A DNA stretch of 64,000 nt, taken from IMG/VR virus record IMGVR_UViG_3300048014_000057, positions 32,001-96,000 of that record; one strand, 5' to 3'. This document shows positions 2,001-33,026 of this stretch, piece by piece. The translations under genes and the position numbers were made by a program. Within the stretch, counting starts at the first letter, position 1; each line of letters opens with the position of its first letter. The notes under the pieces were generated by a model. It worked only from the letters and a program-made list of their open reading frames with translations, was not told the DNA's origin and did no database searches. Origin of the DNA: a virus.

Positions 2001-2030
2001 AAAAAAAGAGCCTTAATTGGCTCTTTTTTT
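2001..2030. terminator. bidirectional intrinsic terminator
   Basis: AAAAAAAGAGCC-TTAATT-GGCTCTTTTTTT between convergent genes. Confidence 0.9.
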
Positions 2031-3444
2031 ATATCAATACCCATGTTATTTTTCCGGCATCCCATACTCTTTTATATCCTAATAATTTCATTGCTTCACT
2101 TTCTGTCATATTAGTCATATCTAAACCAAATTGTGATTGGATTATATCTTTTCTGAATCCTCTTTTGGACATTCTTTTTAAATTTTTATCTAAATACATA
2201 TAATCAGGTGAAGGTTCTCCAACTGATATAAATCCATGTAAAGAATATACCTTACCAGAAGCATATGATCTATCAGAATAAGATATTATAGAGCCTTTAT
2301 TATTTTTTTTAAAATGTTTAAGAAGTTTAGAAAATCCTCCTAAAACTATAGTATTTAGTTTATTTGCATATCTAATTAATTCCCAATCATAATTTTTATT
2401 AAATCTTGATATTGAAAATGACATACAAGCAACTAATTCGTTTTCAGAATATAATCCATATGAAATAGAAGCATTATCTTCTCCTTGTATATGATTATCT
2501 TCAAAAAATTTTTTTCTTAAATATTTAGGAACTTCTTGTATTATAGTTTTTCTTGCAAATATTTTTCTATCAATGAATCCTAATTTATTTTTTATCATAC
2601 TTTTAATAATTTCTGGTTTTTCTGCCCATATATCACTCCATACATGAAAAAGAAAAATTCCATCATTTTCACAAGCATTAGTTTTATTAAAATGATACCA
2701 TTTATCTTTTCCTTTTGCTTCTTCGTGATGAAAAATAAGACCATTATATTCAATGGCTATTTTTTTATCTGGCATATAAATATCTAGCTCTTTGTTTTTT
2801 TCATTAATTATTGTTGTTCTATCATTAATTTTAATTTCATTATTATAAAATGATTTAATAAAATCATATATTTCTTTTTGGGATTTAGAAACTTTTACAT
2901 GAGGTTTATCATAATCATTAGGATTTTTGGCGATAATATCATATTCTGAAAATAAAGTAGAAATAACACCTAAAGAAACATCAAATTTATCTGCTAATTG
3001 ACGCATAGTTAAACCAGAATTGTAGGCATTTTCTATTACTTCTTTTGTTAGAATTTCTCTAGAATACATACCAACACGAAAATTTTCTATTTGGTGTTTA
3101 ATTAAATATTGTTTTACTAAAACTTCAGAACAACCTAAAATCTCTCCTATATCCCACTGAGATTTTTTTTGATTAACTCTTATATCATATAACCATTCAT
3201 AGTCATTCAATTTTTCATGAGCTTCTAATTTATTATTTCTTTTCTTTCCAATTTGATTTTCTCCGACAATTTTAGATGCTTCCTCATGATCTCTTAGAGG
3301 AATATTAAAATTCCTCATCCACCTAAGAAAGGTAGGTCGAGAAACAGAGAATTGTGTAGAAATCTGAGTAGGCGATTTCTTTTCGACATTATAAAGATTT
3401 TCTAATTCTTCTTTAGTAATTGGACATTCGATTTTTCTAGACAT
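2029..3444 (-). CDS. Hef-like endonuclease: HTH repeats, PD-(D/E)xK domain, C-terminal GNAT-like domain
   Basis: ELDIYMPDKKIAIEYNG..H motif; start moved to ATG 3444 behind a GGAG SD. Confidence 0.75.
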   Translation of the reverse strand: MSRKIECPITKEELENLYNVEKKSPTQISTQFSVSRPTFLRWMRNFNIPLRDHEEASKIVGENQIGKKRNNKLEAHEKLNDYEWLYDIRVNQKKSQWDIGEILGCSEVLVKQYLIKHQIENFRVGMYSREILTKEVIENAYNSGLTMRQLADKFDVSLGVISTLFSEYDIIAKNPNDYDKPHVKVSKSQKEIYDFIKSFYNNEIKINDRTTIINEKNKELDIYMPDKKIAIEYNGLIFHHEEAKGKDKWYHFNKTNACENDGIFLFHVWSDIWAEKPEIIKSMIKNKLGFIDRKIFARKTIIQEVPKYLRKKFFEDNHIQGEDNASISYGLYSENELVACMSFSISRFNKNYDWELIRYANKLNTIVLGGFSKLLKHFKKNNKGSIISYSDRSYASGKVYSLHGFISVGEPSPDYMYLDKNLKRMSKRGFRKDIIQSQFGLDMTNMTESEAMKLLGYKRVWDAGKITWVLI

Positions 3445-4876
3445 TTTCATAACTCCATATGTTATTTCCACAGTCAAAAAATAACCTATAACCATTATTC
3501 AACATATTTTCTCTTTCAGATAGGGTTTCATCATATAATTTTAGATTTTGTAATTTATGTTTCTGAAATTCCATTCTATTGTAGGAAATATTACCATCTG
3601 TATATCTATAACCTATTTTTGTAGAACCCTTAAATTTTAACCCCATCCTTTCAAAAACCTCACCTTCTCCGTATTGTCTGTCGGAATAACATATCACTTT
3701 TTCTTCTATTTTTAAAGTCTTTTTAAATTGAGAAAATAATTTGGAAGCACCACCAACAATATTTTTAAATTTTAAAGTACATAATCTTACCAATTCCCAA
3801 TCATAATTCTTATTAAATCTTGGACGAGAAAATGACATTACTTGTACTAAAATATCTTCATAGAATAATCCATATCTGACAGAAGAAGATGCTGTTCCGT
3901 TAATATGATTTTCCTGACAAAATTCATCATGATCTTTCTTGGATATTTCTCTTACTTCACATTTTCTTCCCATTATCTTTTCTGATTTTCCAAGCGAATT
4001 TGATATAATGGATTCAACAATTTCCTTTTTATCTCTCCATTTTTCATCAGATATATGGAGAATCTTTATATTTTTATTCAAACATGCAAGAGTTTTATTA
4101 AACAATTTTTCCTGATTTTCTTTTTTAAAATCTACATAAGAATGCCAATAGAGCCCATTTATTTCTATGGCTAAGTTATGGGAAGGAATGTAAATATCCA
4201 ATTCCTTACCATCTAAAATTGATCTATTGGTGATTTCAGGAATAATACCCAAAGATTTTATATATTCTCCAATTTCTCTTTCATCCTTTGATTGATTACA
4301 ATAATATTTTATTTCTATATTATATTTCCTAAGATAATCAAGAACAGTTCCATAATAAACTCCTAGAAATTCTGCTATTTCTTCCGAGGTTTTTTCTTGA
4401 TATTCATTTTCTAACCATTCTTTATTTTGTAAATATTCTAAGGCTTGAGGATTATTTTTTTCTAGTTTACTCCTTCTCAAGATTTTTTTTATATCTTCTC
4501 TCTGGGAGTTATATTCAACACCATATTTTTTCAATAAAGTGTTACGTGCTTTTTCTTTTTTAACTTCTTGATCTATTCCCGACACTCTTTTTTTCATTAC
4601 CTCTTTATCTAAAAAATAACATTTTTTGGAACAATATAAAGAAATTTCTTTTTTATCTGTAAAGTGTTGATGTTCTTTATTACAAATTTTACATCTAGGT
4701 AATTCTGTAAATTCTAATTCTAAAAATTTAAGCCTTTCTGAGAGATTTGTATTTTCTCTCAGAAAGGCTGTATTTTCTATAACTTGATTATACAAATTTA
4801 TATTTTTATTTTTTAAAATTATTAACTTTCTTTGTTTTTCGGGAAGTAGATTTTTTATTTCTTCTAAAAGAGTCAT
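3437..4876 (-). CDS. Hef-like endonuclease, paralog of the adjacent gene
   Basis: ELDIYIPSHNLAIEINGLYWH; KYGVEYNSQ motif; CxxC/CSxxC zinc motifs. Confidence 0.75.
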   Translation of the reverse strand: MTLLEEIKNLLPEKQRKLIILKNKNINLYNQVIENTAFLRENTNLSERLKFLELEFTELPRCKICNKEHQHFTDKKEISLYCSKKCYFLDKEVMKKRVSGIDQEVKKEKARNTLLKKYGVEYNSQREDIKKILRRSKLEKNNPQALEYLQNKEWLENEYQEKTSEEIAEFLGVYYGTVLDYLRKYNIEIKYYCNQSKDEREIGEYIKSLGIIPEITNRSILDGKELDIYIPSHNLAIEINGLYWHSYVDFKKENQEKLFNKTLACLNKNIKILHISDEKWRDKKEIVESIISNSLGKSEKIMGRKCEVREISKKDHDEFCQENHINGTASSSVRYGLFYEDILVQVMSFSRPRFNKNYDWELVRLCTLKFKNIVGGASKLFSQFKKTLKIEEKVICYSDRQYGEGEVFERMGLKFKGSTKIGYRYTDGNISYNRMEFQKHKLQNLKLYDETLSERENMLNNGYRLFFDCGNNIWSYENV

Positions 4877-10701: not shown

Positions 10702-10860
10702 TTATCCTAAGTTTTTAACTGATTCTGCCGCAATAAATTGAATATCTTCTCTTCTAACTCCAATATCAGAAAGTTCTTTATCGGTTAAATAATTTAATTC
10801 TTTATAAATTCTTTGATACTCTTTATATTTCTTAATTTTAGAAATAATAAAATTCAACAT
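10702..10860 (-). CDS. DUF1127 (YjiS-like) small protein, 52 aa, absent from ORF track
   Basis: MLNFIISKIKKYKEYQRIYKELNYLTDKELSDIGVRREDIQFIAAESVKNLG; EL..L.D.EL.DIG..R.DI motif. Confidence 0.85.
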   Translation of the reverse strand: MLNFIISKIKKYKEYQRIYKELNYLTDKELSDIGVRREDIQFIAAESVKNLG

Positions 10861-10872
10861 TTTTTAACCTCT

Positions 10873-11160
10873 TTAAAATCCTCTTAATTCTTTTGTTACA
10901 TCTGATATTTCTTCAAGACGAAGAATTTTTATATTTTTTATATAAAAACTATACGCTTTTATGTATATATTATTTGTTAATTTAATAACAGGTGATAATT
11001 TATTTTTTAGATTATCTTCCGTGTAAAATACATTTTCTCCTAAATTTCTAGAAAAACCAGATAATATAATTTCTCTTTTAATTAACAATACAATATTTTC
11101 ATATTCTTTTTTATTTTTTTCTTTAAATTCTTCATTAAATTCTATATGAATACCATACAT
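10873..11160 (-). CDS. VapD-like (Cas2-fold) protein, divergent
   Basis: MYGIHIEF start, SGFSR..GENVFY, C-terminal NIKILRLEEISDVT resemble VapD. Confidence 0.5.
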   Translation of the reverse strand: MYGIHIEFNEEFKEKNKKEYENIVLLIKREIILSGFSRNLGENVFYTEDNLKNKLSPVIKLTNNIYIKAYSFYIKNIKILRLEEISDVTKELRGF

Positions 11161-11186
11161 TTAATAATTCCTTTTTTAAAAAGAGT

Positions 11187-11246
11187 TGGACCAAGGGAAG
11201 GATTCGAACCTCCGACATAAAGCTCTACCAACTGAGCTACCTTGGT
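11187..11246 (-). ncRNA. tRNA-like RNA lacking the anticodon arm (60 nt)
   Basis: ACCAAGG TA GCTC AGTTGGTA GAGC TTTATGTC GGAGG TTCGAAT CCTTC CCTTGGT CCA. Confidence 0.75.
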
Positions 11247-11253
11247 ATAAAAA

Positions 11254-11327
11254 TGGAGCGGAAAAAAGGACTTGAACCTTTTTCAACAGTTTGGAAGACT
11301 GTGGCACAACCTATATACCATTCCCGC
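11254..11327 (-). tRNA. tRNA-Gly(TCC)
   Basis: GCGGGAA...ACAGT CTTCCAA ACTGT...TTCAAGT...TTTCCGC T CCA. Confidence 0.92.
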
Positions 11328-11348
11328 AAATTTAATAATTTTATTCTG

Positions 11349-11572
11349 TTGTCAACTATTTATTCAGGTTATATTTATATTTGGTATGATATTAAATCTA
11401 AATTTTTTTATATTGGTGGCCATAAAGGAAAAGTTTCTGATTATTATATATGTTCAAATAAACCAATGTTAAGAGCTTATAAATTAAGACCAGAAACTTA
11501 GAAATTCTATAATAGGAAGAAAATTACAAACTAGAGAAGATGGAAGTAAATATTGGAAATATCCTGATAAAA
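11349..11572 (+). pseudogene. GIY-YIG (seg-like) homing endonuclease remnant
   Basis: GYIYIWYD...FYIGGHKG...YICS then stop at 11499-11501; downstream fragment TREDGSKYW suggests an internal deletion. Confidence 0.65.
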
Positions 11573-11845
11573 GTGGGGAGATTCTGTTACTAGGCTCTCC
11601 CCCTATGCCCTAGTTAGAGATTATGCACAGAGTGCAAAACCTTCAACAAATGCAACTTCATTATCATTTGCATTTACAGTTTTATTCCGTTAACGGAGGT
11701 TTCCCCCGATAGACTACTCATTTCCTTCATCTAGCAATCGATCCTGTTCGAGCCCATCAACAAAACACCTTAATGTACTCTTGGTGGACTCGCGGACATA
11801 CGCTAGTCCGGTCTTGCCAAGATTATCTAAATGTATCAACATCTA
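11571..11845 (-). ncRNA. ssrA: two-piece (circularly permuted) tmRNA, alphaproteobacterial type
   Basis: Acceptor piece ends CGAGTCC A CCA (11782); 26-nt spacer; coding piece starts GGGCTCG AACAGGATCGA (11755), giving G3-U70; tag ORF 11671-11621 ANDNEVAFVEGFALCA*; outer ends approximate. Confidence 0.9.
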
Positions 11846-11898
11846 TCCTTTATTTATCTCATAAAATCTTTTACAAGTCAAGAAAAAAATAAAAAAAA

Positions 11899-12261
11899 TT
11901 AAATATAAATTCCCCTATCAATTACATTATAATGGGAATAAACACCAATATCTCCAAAATATTTTTCTACACATTCAACAACAATTCTATGATCATAATC
12001 TTTACATGAAAAAATATCAAAATAAGCTGTATTGGTATCAGAAGAAAAATGTGCAGTTATATTACTTGTAACTATTTTTTGTAATAAAGTATATCCGGCT
12101 TTATTACCATGACCAAAATAAACAATTTCGGGTTCACCAAAGGCAACCATATCTATAGATTCAACCAATTCTTCTACAAATTTTTTTATATTTGTAGAAG
12201 AATTGATTTTTTTATTATTACAATTATAAACATCTATAGATAATGATTTTCCCCAAGCCAT
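11899..12261 (-). CDS. speD: S-adenosylmethionine decarboxylase
   Basis: WG...ID..NC; GYTLLQ.IVTSNITAHF self-cleavage region; DIFSCK. Confidence 0.88.
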   Translation of the reverse strand: MAWGKSLSIDVYNCNNKKINSSTNIKKFVEELVESIDMVAFGEPEIVYFGHGNKAGYTLLQKIVTSNITAHFSSDTNTAYFDIFSCKDYDHRIVVECVEKYFGDIGVYSHYNVIDRGIYI

Positions 12262-12463
12262 TTTAATTTCCTTACTAATTAAAAATGTATTTATTATATT
12301 TTATTATAAAATAAGAATACAATTTTAAAGTCTTTATAGTTATTTTATGTGCCATTTCAGGAGGTAAAAAAGATAAAATAAATCTGATAATACGATAACA
12401 TTTAATTATCATAAAATCAAAAATGTATAATATCATAAGAATTAAAAATTGTAATAAATTCAT

Positions 12464-13390
12464 TTATTCTATCAATTCATGAAATTCATCTGCATCATTG
12501 CCATCAAATACACGATTAATAGTCTCAAAAAGATATGTTCTGTTAATATTTTTATTACTAGATTTTTTAAGAATATTAATTAATTCATGAAAAAATGAGG
12601 CATCTACGCCTATTAATTGTTCATATAACACTTCCATAACATTTAAATCTAATTTAGAAATATCCCAGGCAATTTTTAACATTTCTCCTGCCGTAATAGT
12701 CCATCCACGATTAATAAATTTCTTAATCCTAAACATGGAACAAATAGGATACAAAGACCCTACATATTTTAATTCCTTGGCTAGAATACTTTCTAGAGCA
12801 TCCTCATTTAATACAAGTCCATCTTTTTCAGTGTACCAATTAGTAACATGAACAAAATCATAATTTTCATGAATTACATCTGGTCTACCAATAAATCTTG
12901 TAATAATTTGTACATCACCATGAAGAGAAATAGCATTGGAAGAAATCATAGAAACAGAAAATGGAGTTTTTGTTTTAAATGATTCTTTATCTAGATATGA
13001 TTCAATATTATCACCATTGGTCATTTCAAAATATTCATAATCTTTAAAATCTTCATCTTCTGATCGAATTATACCGGCAGATTTAATAAAAACAACTACT
13101 CTACTATTTTTAATTTCTGCAAAGATTCTACTTACTTTATCAGTTTTGGTTACTTTAGAAATATAATAATTGACCAAATTTAGTACAACTTCAGGTGTTT
13201 GAAAATAAACATCATAATCATTAGGATTTTCCCCTAATAACATTGATGCTATTGCTCCACCAGTTACAATATAATCATTTTTTACTTCTTTTCTCAAGAC
13301 TTCATCATCAATAGATTTAATCCATTTATCCATTTTATTTTGGATAGTCTGAACAATAGTTTTTCTCTTAAAACCTCTTTTATTATCCAC
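12464..13390 (-). CDS. Pol-beta superfamily nucleotidyltransferase-like protein
   Basis: IVTGGAIASML...NDYDVYF (hGG...DxD), YDFVH, RIKKFINRGW. Confidence 0.65.
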   Translation of the reverse strand: MDNKRGFKRKTIVQTIQNKMDKWIKSIDDEVLRKEVKNDYIVTGGAIASMLLGENPNDYDVYFQTPEVVLNLVNYYISKVTKTDKVSRIFAEIKNSRVVVFIKSAGIIRSEDEDFKDYEYFEMTNGDNIESYLDKESFKTKTPFSVSMISSNAISLHGDVQIITRFIGRPDVIHENYDFVHVTNWYTEKDGLVLNEDALESILAKELKYVGSLYPICSMFRIKKFINRGWTITAGEMLKIAWDISKLDLNVMEVLYEQLIGVDASFFHELINILKKSSNKNINRTYLFETINRVFDGNDADEFHELIE

Positions 13391-26806: not shown

Positions 26807-27331
26807 CTACAAACCTTTATATGGTAAATCTCTATAATCGTAACCCTTTTTATAGGCTTTTTTTATAGCCATATCAAATTTTAAACGTGATACAGAGGAC
26901 CAAAAAGGAATTCCATTTAAATGGTCCATTTCATGAAAAAATGTTCTGGCAGTAAGATTAGCAAATGTTTTGGTATAAATTTCTCCATCAGGGGCAGTAA
27001 ACCTTACTCTTACATGCCTTGGTCGTTTAATAGAAAAAATTAAATTGGAAAAAGAAAGACAACTTTCTTCTAATTCTATTATTTCTTCGGAAGGTTGTAC
27101 AATTTTTGGATTAATACAACAAAATGATTCCGGATCACCTTGCATACAAAAAACAGAATAATTTCCTTCTAAATCTAATTGATTGTAGGCTAATCCAATT
27201 CCCTTTTCTTTATACATAAAAGAAACCATGGATTCTGCTAAATCAACAATATCCATTGGAGGATTAGAAAAATCCCATTTCTCTGATTTTTGAAATAATT
27301 TTGTTTTATTTTTTGAATACTCTATTTTCAT
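26807..27331 (-). CDS. def: peptide deformylase
   Basis: GIGLA.NQ, ESCLS, HEMDHLNG. Confidence 0.93.
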   Translation of the reverse strand: MKIEYSKNKTKLFQKSEKWDFSNPPMDIVDLAESMVSFMYKEKGIGLAYNQLDLEGNYSVFCMQGDPESFCCINPKIVQPSEEIIELEESCLSFSNLIFSIKRPRHVRVRFTAPDGEIYTKTFANLTARTFFHEMDHLNGIPFWSSVSRLKFDMAIKKAYKKGYDYRDLPYKGL

Positions 27332-28776: not shown

Positions 28777-29340
28777 TTAAATTTTAGAAATAATTTTGTC
28801 ACATAATTTTAATTTTATACATTCATGTGGGGAAAGCCATTTATCTTCTGGTGGTAATAATTTTTCTTCAATTTCTTTTTTAGATAAACCAGTTGCATTT
28901 TCATATATATTATAAATTCTTTTGGTAATTAATTTATGTTCTTTAGATGCTGCTTTTATCTCATAATCTTTACCCTCTGAACCACTAGACCATTGATGCG
29001 AAAGAATAGAAGCATTTTTAAATATATATCTATTACCTTTATTACCCGAAAGAAATAATATCAAACCACAAGAAGCTACCAAACCTGCACCATAGGTATA
29101 AATTGGAATAGGATAGGCATTCATTATATCTATCATGGCAAAACAATCAGAAATTATTCCACCAGGAGAATTTATTATAACTTTTAAATGATTTGGTTTT
29201 GGTTTTCCATTATCATAACAATTTTTTTCTATTATAAATCTTATAAAATATTCCGCCATATTTGAATCTACAATACCATTAAGAAAGCAAATTGAAGAAT
29301 CTTCAATAATATATTGATTTATATCCGCTAAAGTTACCAA
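28777..29340 (-). CDS. clpP: ClpP-like protease
   Basis: INSPGG, G.VASCG (catalytic Ser), R....A.ILSHQ (His), DKWL...E. Confidence 0.88.
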   Translation of the reverse strand: MVTLADINQYIIEDSSICFLNGIVDSNMAEYFIRFIIEKNCYDNGKPKPNHLKVIINSPGGIISDCFAMIDIMNAYPIPIYTYGAGLVASCGLILFLSGNKGNRYIFKNASILSHQWSSGSEGKDYEIKAASKEHKLITKRIYNIYENATGLSKKEIEEKLLPPEDKWLSPHECIKLKLCDKIISKI

Positions 29341-29977: not shown

Positions 29978-30277
29978 TTACAATTCTGTTTCTACTGTTT
30001 CTTGATTAACATTTCTAATTTTAAATTCAAGAATTGTACTATCAATTCTAAATGACAAAATAAAAAAATTTAAATCAATATAATATTGATTATTATTAGT
30101 TTGGTCACAAAAAATAAAAATAGTACCATTATAGTCTAATTTACTAACAAATTTTTTAAAATGGTCTCTTACTTTTTTTCTTGTTTCTTCGTTATTATTT
30201 TCAAGAAAAACATCATCTGGAAAATACGATTTTACCTCACTTTTGATAAGATTAATTACATTATTTTTATTTAACAA
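29978..30277 (-). CDS. small protein resembling the tail sheath (gp18) C-terminal domain
   Basis: FLENNNEETR...FCDQTNN....ID.N.F compared with sheath FE.ND..TR...VCDETNNT..VIDRNEF. Confidence 0.5.
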   Translation of the reverse strand: MLNKNNVINLIKSEVKSYFPDDVFLENNNEETRKKVRDHFKKFVSKLDYNGTIFIFCDQTNNNQYYIDLNFFILSFRIDSTILEFKIRNVNQETVETEL

Positions 30278-33026
30278 TTTTACTAAATCCTTTCTCTTTT
30301 TTAAATTCGATTATATTTTCTATTCTATCCTTATTTTTTTCATTATGAGAAATAATAAACACATTTTCATCCTTTGTCAATCTTTTTAAAATATTAAGGT
30401 AAGAATCTATTCCATCTGCATCCATACTACCATCAAGAGTTTCATCAAAAATAAGTAAATTTGTATCGAGTGAATTTCTTCTTTTTGCCACTTCTCTGAA
30501 AGTAAAGAGAAGTGCCAAATTAATTCTCATTTTTTCTCCTTGACTAAAAGACTGAAAAATATGTTCATCACGATATCTAGATTTTATAACTTCATTAAAA
30601 TTTTCATCTACTGTAAATTGACAAATAAAATCCATTTCAAGAAGAAATTTATTTATTAATTCATTAATCACTTCAATATATTGTTTAATAATAGAAGCCT
30701 TGACTCCATCATCTCGAAGAAGTTTAAGTAATATATTCATATTTTCTTTTTGAATTACTAAATTATCATAATTTTTAATATAATTTTCAAGAGAATTTTG
30801 TAATTGTAAAATTTCTTCTGTTTTATCTTCCACATTTTCATTTTTAAAAGAATTAATTTTTATTTTTAATTCATTAGCAAGAGAAGTAATATTTTTTAAT
30901 TCATATAAAATTAAATCAATTTTAGAATTAACTTCTTTCATGGATTTAATAGAATCATTAAATTTATCAATTTCTAATTCTAATTTATCATATGTTCTTT
31001 GGTATATTTTTACCTGATCTAAATTATGAGTATGTTGTATCCTTTTTTCTTGTATAATAATATCCTTAAAAGTTTCATCAATATTTTGATTACATACATT
31101 ACAAACACACGTATTTTCATAATAATACATTTCTTTTTCTAGTTTTTTATTTTCAAGTTTTAAATTATTAATATCACTTCCAAGTTTATAATAAAGTGAT
31201 TCTTTAGTTTTTAATTCATCTTCTATTTTAGAAGTATCAAATTTTTCTGGTATATTCTTCTTTTTTAACAAATATGATTTTCTGTATTCCTCTAATTTTT
31301 CTTCCATTTCTAAAATTTGTTTTTGATTATCTTCTTTTCTTTTTTTATTATATTCTTCCAATAATTTGATTCTATTTTTTAAAGTATTTTGTTCGGTTCT
31401 TAATTCATAGATATTTTTTTCATTATCTTGAATTCTTTTTTTAAGTATTAAATTCATAGAAGAAAATATTTCAAGATCAAGTAAATTTTCTACTATTTTT
31501 CTTCTATCTGGTAAAGGAAGTTCTAAAAAAGGAACATACGAAGCCGAACCCAAAACACAAACTTGACAAAATGCCTTATGATTAATATGAAGAATATTTT
31601 CTTCTAAATATTTTTGATAATCATCTTGGTTTGTATTATTCAATAATACATTATTTTTATATATTTCAAATTTATTAGGTTTTATACCTCTAATAATCTT
31701 ATAAAAATCTTGTCCTATGGTAAATTCTATTTCCACCAGACAATTTTTCTTTGTCATTGAATTAACCAAAAGAGATAAAGTTACTTTTCTAAATGGTTTT
31801 TTAAACAAACAAAAACAAAGAGCATCAAGACAAGTCGAATTATGAGTTACAACATAATTATCAGTTACATATAACTGAGAAGGATGATCAATAGAAATAC
31901 ATTTAACAATTTCTTTTTCAATTTTTTCAATTTTTTCAATTCTTAAACGTAAAGAATCTTTATATTGATAATTTTTACATCTTTCTTTTTTTCTAGATAA
32001 TGAAAATAACTCAGATGGATTTTTATATCTAATATTTAATTGATATGATAATCTTCCTTTCTTTTTTATTCCTTTATTTGTAAAGGAAGGATTTTTTTCT
32101 GAAATTTTACAAATACCACCAATAGAAAATATTAATTCTTGTATATCTTTGGCTAATTCATAACTTGTTGTTGAATAAGAAATAGAACCGTTTCTATCAG
32201 CAGTTCCATCTGTATCCATTAAACCACGTAATAATTCTATTTTTTGATTAAAAGAAATATTTTTATATAATTCTGGAATATTTTTTTCCCAGGATCGTTT
32301 TCCATATAAATTTAATTTTTTTAATTCTTCTTTAAATATGTGTTTTTCATATTTAATACCATAATTAATTCTATAAGAACATCTTGTTTGAACTTTTGAT
32401 AAATGTAATTTTACAATCCTAGGACAAGTAAAATCAAGAATATTTCTTACTTTATTTAATAATTCTTCATCTGTATTTGTTATTGTTACATTACTACTAG
32501 TAAATGATCCATCACCAATTAAAACACCTAATAAATAAGGATTAATTGGTAAATCTACATCTTTTTTTATAAAATTTTCTGCTTCAAAAAGTTGAATAAA
32601 ATGATTATCAGTAAAATTACCTAATGAATTTTCTTTTTCTTTTAAAATTTCTAAAAGAGATAAAATTTTCCATTGCCATTTTGATTCAAAATATCCCCAT
32701 ACTCTAAAAAGATGGTTTTCCCCACATTTAACTTTTCTTCCATCTTTAAATGTAATTTCATATACATTTTCTTCTCCGATAAATGGAATATCAATTACTT
32801 TTGATATATCTCCATTAGCAGATACAATTTCATCTCCAATTTTTATATTACCAATAGTATTCCATCCTAAAGGTGTTAGGATTTTTGAATATAATGGTTG
32901 TGCTTTACCAGCACCATTTATACCAACAATAAGTGAAATAGAATTTTCGTTTAATTTTATTTCTGTCCATTGATTACCAGATGATAAAAAATTCTGGTAA
33001 CGAATAGTATTAAATATTATTTTCAT
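30267..33026 (-). CDS. gp46: recombination endonuclease subunit gp46 (Rad50-like), intein-containing
   Basis: NFLSSGN, G.NGAGK|S, CNVC zinc hook, SFSQGEK.RI.LAL, DETLD, ISH. Confidence 0.96.
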   Translation of the reverse strand: MKIIFNTIRYQNFLSSGNQWTEIKLNENSISLIVGINGAGKAQPLYSKILTPLGWNTIGNIKIGDEIVSANGDISKVIDIPFIGEENVYEITFKDGRKVKCGENHLFRVWGYFESKWQWKILSLLEILKEKENSLGNFTDNHFIQLFEAENFIKKDVDLPINPYLLGVLIGDGSFTSSNVTITNTDEELLNKVRNILDFTCPRIVKLHLSKVQTRCSYRINYGIKYEKHIFKEELKKLNLYGKRSWEKNIPELYKNISFNQKIELLRGLMDTDGTADRNGSISYSTTSYELAKDIQELIFSIGGICKISEKNPSFTNKGIKKKGRLSYQLNIRYKNPSELFSLSRKKERCKNYQYKDSLRLRIEKIEKIEKEIVKCISIDHPSQLYVTDNYVVTHNSTCLDALCFCLFKKPFRKVTLSLLVNSMTKKNCLVEIEFTIGQDFYKIIRGIKPNKFEIYKNNVLLNNTNQDDYQKYLEENILHINHKAFCQVCVLGSASYVPFLELPLPDRRKIVENLLDLEIFSSMNLILKKRIQDNEKNIYELRTEQNTLKNRIKLLEEYNKKRKEDNQKQILEMEEKLEEYRKSYLLKKKNIPEKFDTSKIEDELKTKESLYYKLGSDINNLKLENKKLEKEMYYYENTCVCNVCNQNIDETFKDIIIQEKRIQHTHNLDQVKIYQRTYDKLELEIDKFNDSIKSMKEVNSKIDLILYELKNITSLANELKIKINSFKNENVEDKTEEILQLQNSLENYIKNYDNLVIQKENMNILLKLLRDDGVKASIIKQYIEVINELINKFLLEMDFICQFTVDENFNEVIKSRYRDEHIFQSFSQGEKMRINLALLFTFREVAKRRNSLDTNLLIFDETLDGSMDADGIDSYLNILKRLTKDENVFIISHNEKNKDRIENIIEFKKEKGFSKIVK
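31839..32903 (-). mobile_element. intein (355 aa) with LAGLIDADG endonuclease, Ala1 start
   Basis: GK|AQPLYSKILTP...YLLGVLIGDG...LRGLMDTDG...VKCISID...VVTHN|S; inserted in Walker A. Confidence 0.93.

Follow-up and report, generated by a model that had tools for sequence, protein, structure and literature searches.

Among the closest described systems is the two-piece ssrA of Caulobacter (Keiler, Shapiro and Williams 2000, as cited in PMC9004378). In phages, tmRNAs were described by Hudson, Lau and Williams (2014) in mycobacteriophages of the Bxz1 group and in Bacillus phage G (PMC4131195), and Buchholz et al. (2022) reported that the OM43 myophage Melnitz carries a complete two-piece ssrA of the alpha type and described such tmRNAs in pelagimyophages as well (PMC9004378). 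In 18,146 phage genomes the same work counted 53 two-piece tmRNAs, of which 50 came from aquatic samples, and 17 among 47 Melnitz-like contigs; its authors proposed that the phage thereby maintains the hijacked translation machinery or tags proteins, and they described a glutamine riboswitch in the ssrA 3' domain of Melnitz and Mosig that they state is not a defining feature (PMC9004378). An alpha-type two-piece tmRNA in a phage is as such already published, and only the end of the tag, -LCA, is unusual at the locus presented here.

Results

A T4-like phage record with a complete permuted tmRNA gene

The window analyzed here is a stretch of 64,000 nucleotides, bases 32001-96000 of a 144,859-base IMG/VR record for which CheckV gives 84% completeness. 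Judged by its gene content, the source is an uncultured, very AT-rich T4-like phage: the major capsid protein gp23 is encoded at 580-1971 of the window and the prohead protease gp21 directly upstream of it, and the gp43 DNA polymerase, PhoH, SpeD, homing endonucleases and a gp46-like protein are encoded as well. Its G+C content runs from 23 to 31% (26% overall), with 40% at the tmRNA locus, and its capsid protein is less than 60% identical to that of every isolate phage, the top match being Stenotrophomonas phage DLP_6 at 59%, so that close kinship with Melnitz or HTVC008M is not seen.

Several further features of the window were recorded alongside. Two homing-endonuclease genes stand in tandem at 2029-4876, and the gp46/SbcC-like recombination nuclease gene (30267-33026, minus strand) has a LAGLIDADG domain, probably an intein. 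A peptide deformylase gene (26807-27331, minus strand) adjoins the DNA polymerase gene; the genome with this translation-related auxiliary gene also holds the tmRNA and several tRNAs. Seven nucleotides past a tRNA-Gly gene lies a tRNA-like gene (11187-11246, minus strand) with a perfect 7-bp acceptor stem, a D arm, a T arm and CCA, in which the anticodon arm is replaced by only 8 nt (UUUAUGUC); it scores 46.6 bits with the Rfam tRNA model and is missed by ARAGORN. The pattern GGTAGAGC-N8-16-GGTTCGAATCC retrieves 24 further IMG/VR loci, most with complementary acceptor strands, and the anticodon-arm-less gene seems to be an element that recurs among phages, not a single deletion event.

At 11885-11572 (minus strand) the Rfam alpha_tmRNA model (RF01849, gathering score 50) matches over its full length, positions 1-355, with 88.6 bits and an E value of 1.2e-22, the only such match in the whole 145-kb record, and the tmRNA_permuted model (RF04321, gathering score 47) matches at 11840-11621 (minus strand) over model positions 1-213 with 76.3 bits. 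An earlier, sequence-only reading of this DNA had proposed a permuted tmRNA in two pieces, of the kind typical of Alphaproteobacteria and encoded by the phage, and had named alpha_tmRNA and ARAGORN searches as checks. The covariance-model matches, both over the full model and above the gathering score, bear out the call and cannot be put down to chance, as the fold and the covariation described below also show; ARAGORN makes no call at the locus. The features, with the basis of each assignment in brackets, are as follows.

11876-11881, minus strand: -35 box, TTGACT (sequence)
11851-11861, minus strand: extended -10-like box, TGA followed by GATAAATA at 11858-11851 (sequence)
11782-11840, minus strand: acceptor piece, 5' end approximate (Rfam alignments and sequence)
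11823-11814 with 11737-11729, minus strand: inter-piece helix, AUCUUGGCAA with UUGCUAGAU (sequence)
11793-11810, minus strand: T arm, stem CGGAC/GUCCG with the 8-nt loop UAGCGUAU (Rfam, sequence and fold)
11792-11786, minus strand: 3' acceptor strand, CGAGUCC (sequence)
11785, minus strand: discriminator A, followed by CCA at 11784-11782 (sequence)
11756-11781, minus strand: intervening segment, 26 nt between CCA and G1 (sequence)
11572-11755, minus strand: coding piece (Rfam alignments and sequence)
11755-11749, minus strand: 5' acceptor strand, GGGCUCG, the start of the coding piece (sequence)
11694-11708, minus strand: hairpin CGGGG-GAAAC-CUCCG, upstream of the tag in the region of the first pseudoknot (tmRNA_permuted alignment and minimum-energy fold)
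11621-11671, minus strand: tag frame, resume codon GCA at 11671-11669, 16 codons giving ANDNEVAFVEGFALCA, stop UAA at 11623-11621 (translation)
11614-11647, minus strand: interrupted helix around the last tag codons and the stop, with the top stem UGCAC-UCU-GUGCA (minimum-energy folds)
11575-11613, minus strand: 3' pseudoknot, CUAGG 11613-11609 with CCUAG 11594-11590 and GGGGAGA 11602-11596 with UCUCCCC 11581-11575 (sequence)

Read along the minus strand, CCA (11784-11782) precedes G1 (11755) with 26 nt between them, which is the circular permutation expected of the family. The acceptor piece contributes the 5' strands of the long P2 helices, a T arm whose loop has 8 nt instead of 7, the 3' acceptor strand, the discriminator A and the encoded CCA, and the 26-nt segment that follows is presumably cut out during maturation, by analogy with the Caulobacter two-piece tmRNA. 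The acceptor stem has 7 bp, with G3 (11753) paired to U70 (11788), the identity pair of alanyl-tRNA synthetase (AlaRS), and the inter-piece helix consists of eight Watson-Crick pairs, one U-U mismatch and one bulge. The UAAAUGCAAAUGAUAAU context at the resume codon agrees with both Rfam consensus sequences, the tag opens with ANDN at the GCA resume codon and closes at a stop, and the 3' pseudoknot is followed by ACU and UUUUAU. Thus the CCA-ending acceptor piece ahead of the coding piece, the G3-U70 pair, the pairing between the pieces and the tag, all of which the sequence-only reading had listed, are present in the sequence; that reading had left the strand, minus, unstated, and the span it assigned does not include the promoter boxes it named. 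No glnA-type match indicative of a glutamine riboswitch was found, either at the gathering score across the whole window or at E <= 1 within 10800-12400.

A probable promoter and a neighborhood shared with related phages

The TTGACT box and the late-type box that had been noticed upstream are both there, at 11881-11876 and 11858-11851 (minus strand). They are separated by 17 nt, the spacer ends in TGA, and the -10-like box resembles the T4 late box TATAAATA. In an alignment with three related phage tmRNA loci CTTGAC and TAAATA are invariant, and the Melnitz promoter has TTGACA at the same distance, 17 nt, and then TGG-TATAAATA. Within the window the promoter pattern has one match against 1.1 expected, and TATAAATA occurs 18 times against 27 expected; neither is enriched, so the promoter claim rests on conservation across phages and not on counts. 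The boxes most likely act as a conserved promoter for the host RNA polymerase, an activity that we infer from this conservation. On the far side of the promoter, directly upstream of it, the SpeD (AdoMet decarboxylase) frame contains a perfect 16-bp palindrome with an 8-nt loop (window 12166-12205), with a T run after it on the plus strand.

Relatives were anchored on the gene for a 308-residue protein just upstream of the tmRNA (12464-13390, minus strand), a search that returned 64 related viral loci. In the closest of these a tmRNA lies 0.5-1.5 kb downstream of the anchor gene, and at the loci designated L105/L106, L110 and L111 it is of the alpha type. These share with the present locus the neighborhood, the promoter boxes and helices kept by compensatory changes; their tags are VNDNVAFSEELRLAA (L105/L106), ANDNSPMVEEYRLAA (L110) and DNDYVAPLWDFASLREPALVA (L111), and their contigs have a G+C content of 35-43% compared with 26% here. 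In the L105 and L106 tmRNAs (L105:3453-3836 and L106:5115-5498) the intervening segment measures about 100 nt compared with 26 nt here, and the resume codon is GUC (Val) instead of GCA. A further locus, L113, carries a two-piece tmRNA of the beta type 3.8 kb downstream of the anchor gene (L113:9722-10084, plus strand; RF01850, 131 bits; tag ANDEKFALAA). At this locus the tmRNA type appears to be exchangeable, perhaps in step with the class of the host.

The type of the RNA suggests an alphaproteobacterial source for it, and Melnitz shows that the type need not match the present host (PMC9004378). Blastn in its "distant" setting found no match to the locus in 50,697 isolate phage genomes, since the RNA is too divergent for BLAST: even the Melnitz gene was reached only by covariance model. 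The 16-mer TGAGTAGTCTATCGGG has 15 chance matches in 185,579 species genomes, none of them in a tmRNA, and does not identify a donor or host lineage. With nhmmer, the best of 30 sampled bacterial alpha tmRNAs reached 34 bits; no sampled bacterial tmRNA is close to this one, and the score is uninformative on the host.

These observations also bear on whether the locus is a working phage gene at all. A host fragment, an attP-type remnant of ssrA integration or an assembly chimera would fit a local G+C content above the 26% of the phage, although structured RNA genes are usually higher in G+C. Such origins would also be in keeping with the role of ssrA as a common integration site, fragments of which occur in prophages (PMC9004378, PMC4131195). 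The gene, however, is complete from promoter to 3' end and is flanked by phage genes of the same strand, its relatives carry a tmRNA in the same neighborhood, and its characteristic 16-mer appears in no tmRNA of the sampled bacterial genomes. Since no integrase was found in the whole record and the gene is complete, it is not an attP remnant; an attP or ssrA fragment and host contamination are largely refuted by the complete gene, the phage neighbors and the conserved locus, and we find a nonfunctional origin barely credible.

Compensatory changes across four phage tmRNAs

Folded without constraints, the locus reaches z = -3.08 against shuffles and returns the T arm, the acceptor stem closing the intervening segment, the inter-piece helix and the tag-end helix. 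Covariation was scored on a MAFFT alignment of four alpha-type phage sequences (this one, the L105 type, L110 and L111) with a structure written from the sequence of this window, one of the four, which gives it some advantage, though one that has no bearing on the compensatory changes. Over the four sequences 86% of cells are paired, with changes on both sides in 19 of 38 pairs; none of 500 shuffles reaches the observed pairing, and partners slid by 1-3 columns fare far worse. Compensatory changes occur in 8 of 9 pairs of the inter-piece helix and in 3 of 5 pairs of the T arm (89.5% of cells paired), while the acceptor stem is 100% paired in the four sequences, with three compensatory pairs and an invariant G3-U70. 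The two helices of the 3' pseudoknot are paired at 80% and 89%, the second with five compensatory pairs, and the hairpin at 11694-11708 at only 70% of cells in the MAFFT alignment. At the tag end, L105 has a comparable hairpin at the same place in the fold, and L110 shows a complementary CCGC/GCGG stretch by eye, the hairpin being absent from its minimum-energy fold. The compensatory changes in half of the pairs show that the tmRNA is under selection.

Selection could in principle act on an RNA that merely competes for host SmpB, AlaRS or stalled ribosomes and so damps host trans-translation with no productive tagging. Such a decoy has a parallel in mycobacteriophage DS6A, which has a TLD-only tmRNA, TLD-like molecules being inhibitors of tmRNA (PMC4131195), and would fit a phage that encodes no SmpB. 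Against it, the coding piece persists in full in the relatives, with compensatory changes, and so do the context of the resume codon, the 3' pseudoknot and an open tag frame with its hydrophobic end and its stop, all of which would be needless for a decoy. We therefore regard this role as highly improbable.

The tag ends in Leu-Cys-Ala

The tag ANDNEVAFVEGFALCA ends in Leu-Cys-Ala, with the Cys codon UGU at 11629-11627. For comparison, the seed TAAATGCAAATGATAAT gave more than 102 matches in IMG/VR, only 24 of which are tmRNAs, none of them close to this one, and one seed locus is truncated by its contig end; a second set came from an even sample of 151 Pseudomonadota genomes, where 29 of 30 sampled bacterial loci have ANDN tags. 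All 24 ANDN-type tags from viral contigs and all 29 bacterial alpha tags end in -AA, and none contains a cysteine. With -CA in none of the 53 other ANDN-type tags, the claim of the sequence-only reading that the tag end is unusual holds, and -LCA is atypical by this measure. Searches for a second case gave none: the tag-end 18-mer has no other match in IMG/VR, the clade pattern GTAGTCTATCGGG-N8-CCGTTA retrieves only the three known relatives there, and in metagenomes it yields two more L105-type copies and three chance matches; the variants recovered are of the -RLAA kind only, with no second -LCA in either. Among the IMG/VR and metagenome records searched, from which those closest to this genome may be missing, -LCA is a singleton. 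An Ala-Ala ending, the ClpX degron, is absent here; it is typical of the family and not strictly defining, since L111 ends in -LVA. The four clade tags end in -RLAA (L105), -RLAA (L110), -LVA (L111) and -LCA (here), so the penultimate position is loose within the clade.

An error of sequencing at this codon was considered and rejected: UGU differs from any Ala codon at two positions, so two changes would be needed, and the G and the final U of the codon are paired in the UGCAC/GUGCA stem that tops the tag-end helix. Because of this pairing, RNA structure may itself have helped to shape the codon.

How would a ClpX-type machine read such an end? Cysteine lies between alanine and valine in size. 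For E. coli ClpXP, replacing the penultimate or the last Ala increases KM but leaves Vmax nearly unaffected (PMC7652416), and tags ending in -LVA are degraded fast, fastest of the common variants (PMC11003136). The most economical expectation is that -LCA would be a somewhat weaker but working degron. The suggestion in the sequence-only reading that it may reroute or slow degradation is based on one sequence; to call it a neutral variant is an assumption, given the absence of -CA from the 53 other tags.

The penultimate cysteine might instead be an adaptive change of the degron in a functional tmRNA, bringing weaker ClpX binding, another protease or a redox-dependent fate, and so uncoupling rescue from proteolysis, or re-timing the two, during infection. 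This would be consistent with the uniform -AA of the viral-contig and bacterial tags, with the departure of two of the four distinct clade tags at the penultimate residue (-LCA here, -LVA in L111), with the raised KM of such substitutions in E. coli (PMC7652416), and with the presence of a ClpP-like gene and a peptide deformylase in the same phage. It has to contend, however, with a singleton whose nearest relatives keep -LAA, with a residue of intermediate size next to a -LVA end that makes a strong degron, with a codon partly paired in the tag-end helix, and with a record in which no ClpX or adaptor was found; on balance we consider it rather unlikely. A broader form of the idea, in which -LCA is selected and phage tmRNAs more generally tend to change the final two residues of the tag, with lower ClpX affinity or redirected proteins as the outcome, appears decidedly unlikely. 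Were it true, ribosomes would be recycled, and the truncated proteins would be spared or delayed, or else handed to the short ClpP-like peptidase of the phage, which in such a scheme would possibly be open-gated and independent of an unfoldase.

SmpB, an unfoldase and the ClpP-like protein

No smpB had been seen in the window, and none was found in the 144,859-base record as a whole, at its completeness of 84%. That the phage supplies ribosome rescue would be the standard expectation for a gene of this kind, with the phage contributing the RNA only; as no SmpB is encoded in the record, function of the tmRNA depends on its compatibility with the host.

The ClpP-like open reading frame (window 28777-29340, minus strand) lies in the replication module, matches the Pfam CLP_protease family nearly end to end and retains the Ser-His-Asp triad when aligned with solved ClpP structures; as gp21 is present, the protein is not the head protease. 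In ClpP the axial gate is formed by the N-terminal region, which also takes part in docking ClpX or ClpA, and ClpP itself does not read the tag. Compared with mature ClpP the phage protein lacks about 12 residues at its N terminus, and an in-frame stop precedes its TTG start by two codons; no ClpX/ClpA-type (AAA_2-type) unfoldase or adaptor was found in the record. Judging by its short N terminus, the protein may be a peptidase that lacks the gate and needs no unfoldase. ClpP is absent from Melnitz, from DLP_6 and from a complete 181-kb relative with an -LVA tag (G153), all of which carry a tmRNA, and SmpB is absent from the same three; the co-occurrence of tmRNA and ClpP in this record is thus a single case. 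The proposed cooperation between the tmRNA and the phage ClpP finds no backing in a record that lacks an unfoldase and whose ClpP is short at the N terminus, next to three tmRNA phages without ClpP, and such a partnership is speculation.

Discussion

In light of the anatomy, the family membership and the conservation described above, we regard it as probable, though well short of certain, that the locus encodes a functional phage two-piece alpha-type tmRNA of the Melnitz/pelagimyophage class, in which -LCA is a tolerated, lineage-private variant of the -LAA degron. For such a gene we infer how it is transcribed, processed and alanylated, how it uses SmpB, and how proteins are tagged and then handled, along the following lines. 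Starting at the promoter TTGAC, 17 nt, TGn-GATAAATA, the host RNA polymerase would make a precursor, which host RNases would divide into the acceptor and coding pieces, these remaining paired; host AlaRS would charge the RNA via G3-U70; and host SmpB would bring the charged tmRNA to stalled ribosomes, which would be freed once (A)ANDNEVAFVEGFALCA has been added. The benefit to the phage would be a host ribosome pool kept free during infection.

Together, these results extend alpha-type two-piece tmRNAs in T4-like phages past the marine Melnitz and pelagimyophages to a distant lineage of 26% G+C. Across these phages the position and the promoter of the gene stay constant even as its sequence diverges, and in L113 its type has switched from alpha to beta, making the phage tmRNA a possible marker of host class. 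The penultimate cysteine offers a cheap, testable natural variant of the ssrA degron, and if it changed ClpXP handling, the phage would be tuning host protein quality control; as it stands -LCA is one sequence, and the ordinary explanation is more likely.

Comparison with known systems

Alphaproteobacterial tmRNA (RF01849) shares with the phage gene the order of acceptor piece, intervening segment and coding piece, together with G3-U70, CCA, an ANDN tag and the 3' pseudoknot. The phage RNA departs from it in its 8-nt T loop, in ending the tag with -CA rather than -AA and in being phage-borne without the partner gene smpB, and it is divergent, scoring 88.6 bits where the alpha tmRNAs of 37 sampled bacteria mostly score 200-316. 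The tmRNAs of Bxz1-group mycobacteriophages and Bacillus phage G are likewise phage-borne ssrA genes without smpB, but they are one-piece, not permuted, and belong with hosts of other phyla (PMC4131195). In DLP_6, whose capsid is the most similar among isolates, a permuted tmRNA-like gene is found at about 102831-103060 (L228, KU682439.2), with the tag ANDDSFAPMAIAA and 54 bits over part of the alpha_tmRNA model.

The closest match in kind is Melnitz. Its tmRNA scores 106.7 bits on the alpha_tmRNA model, similar to the 88.6 bits here, with the tag ANDNYVPVDYALAA, and both are complete, permuted alpha-type genes with an ANDN tag start, in T4-like myophages without SmpB, behind a TTGAC(A/T)-17-TGn(G/T)ATAAATA promoter. 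The differences lie in a capsid identity of 55.7%, in the G+C content of 26% and the absence of a glutamine riboswitch here, and, on the side of Melnitz, in an intervening segment much longer than 26 nt, a tag end of -ALAA compared with -ALCA, and the lack of a ClpP gene. As a complete ssrA in a T4-like genome (gp23, gp21 and gp43 present) with neither smpB nor integrase, the locus is, by its sequence, the same kind of gene as Melnitz ssrA, carried in a distant T4-like lineage.
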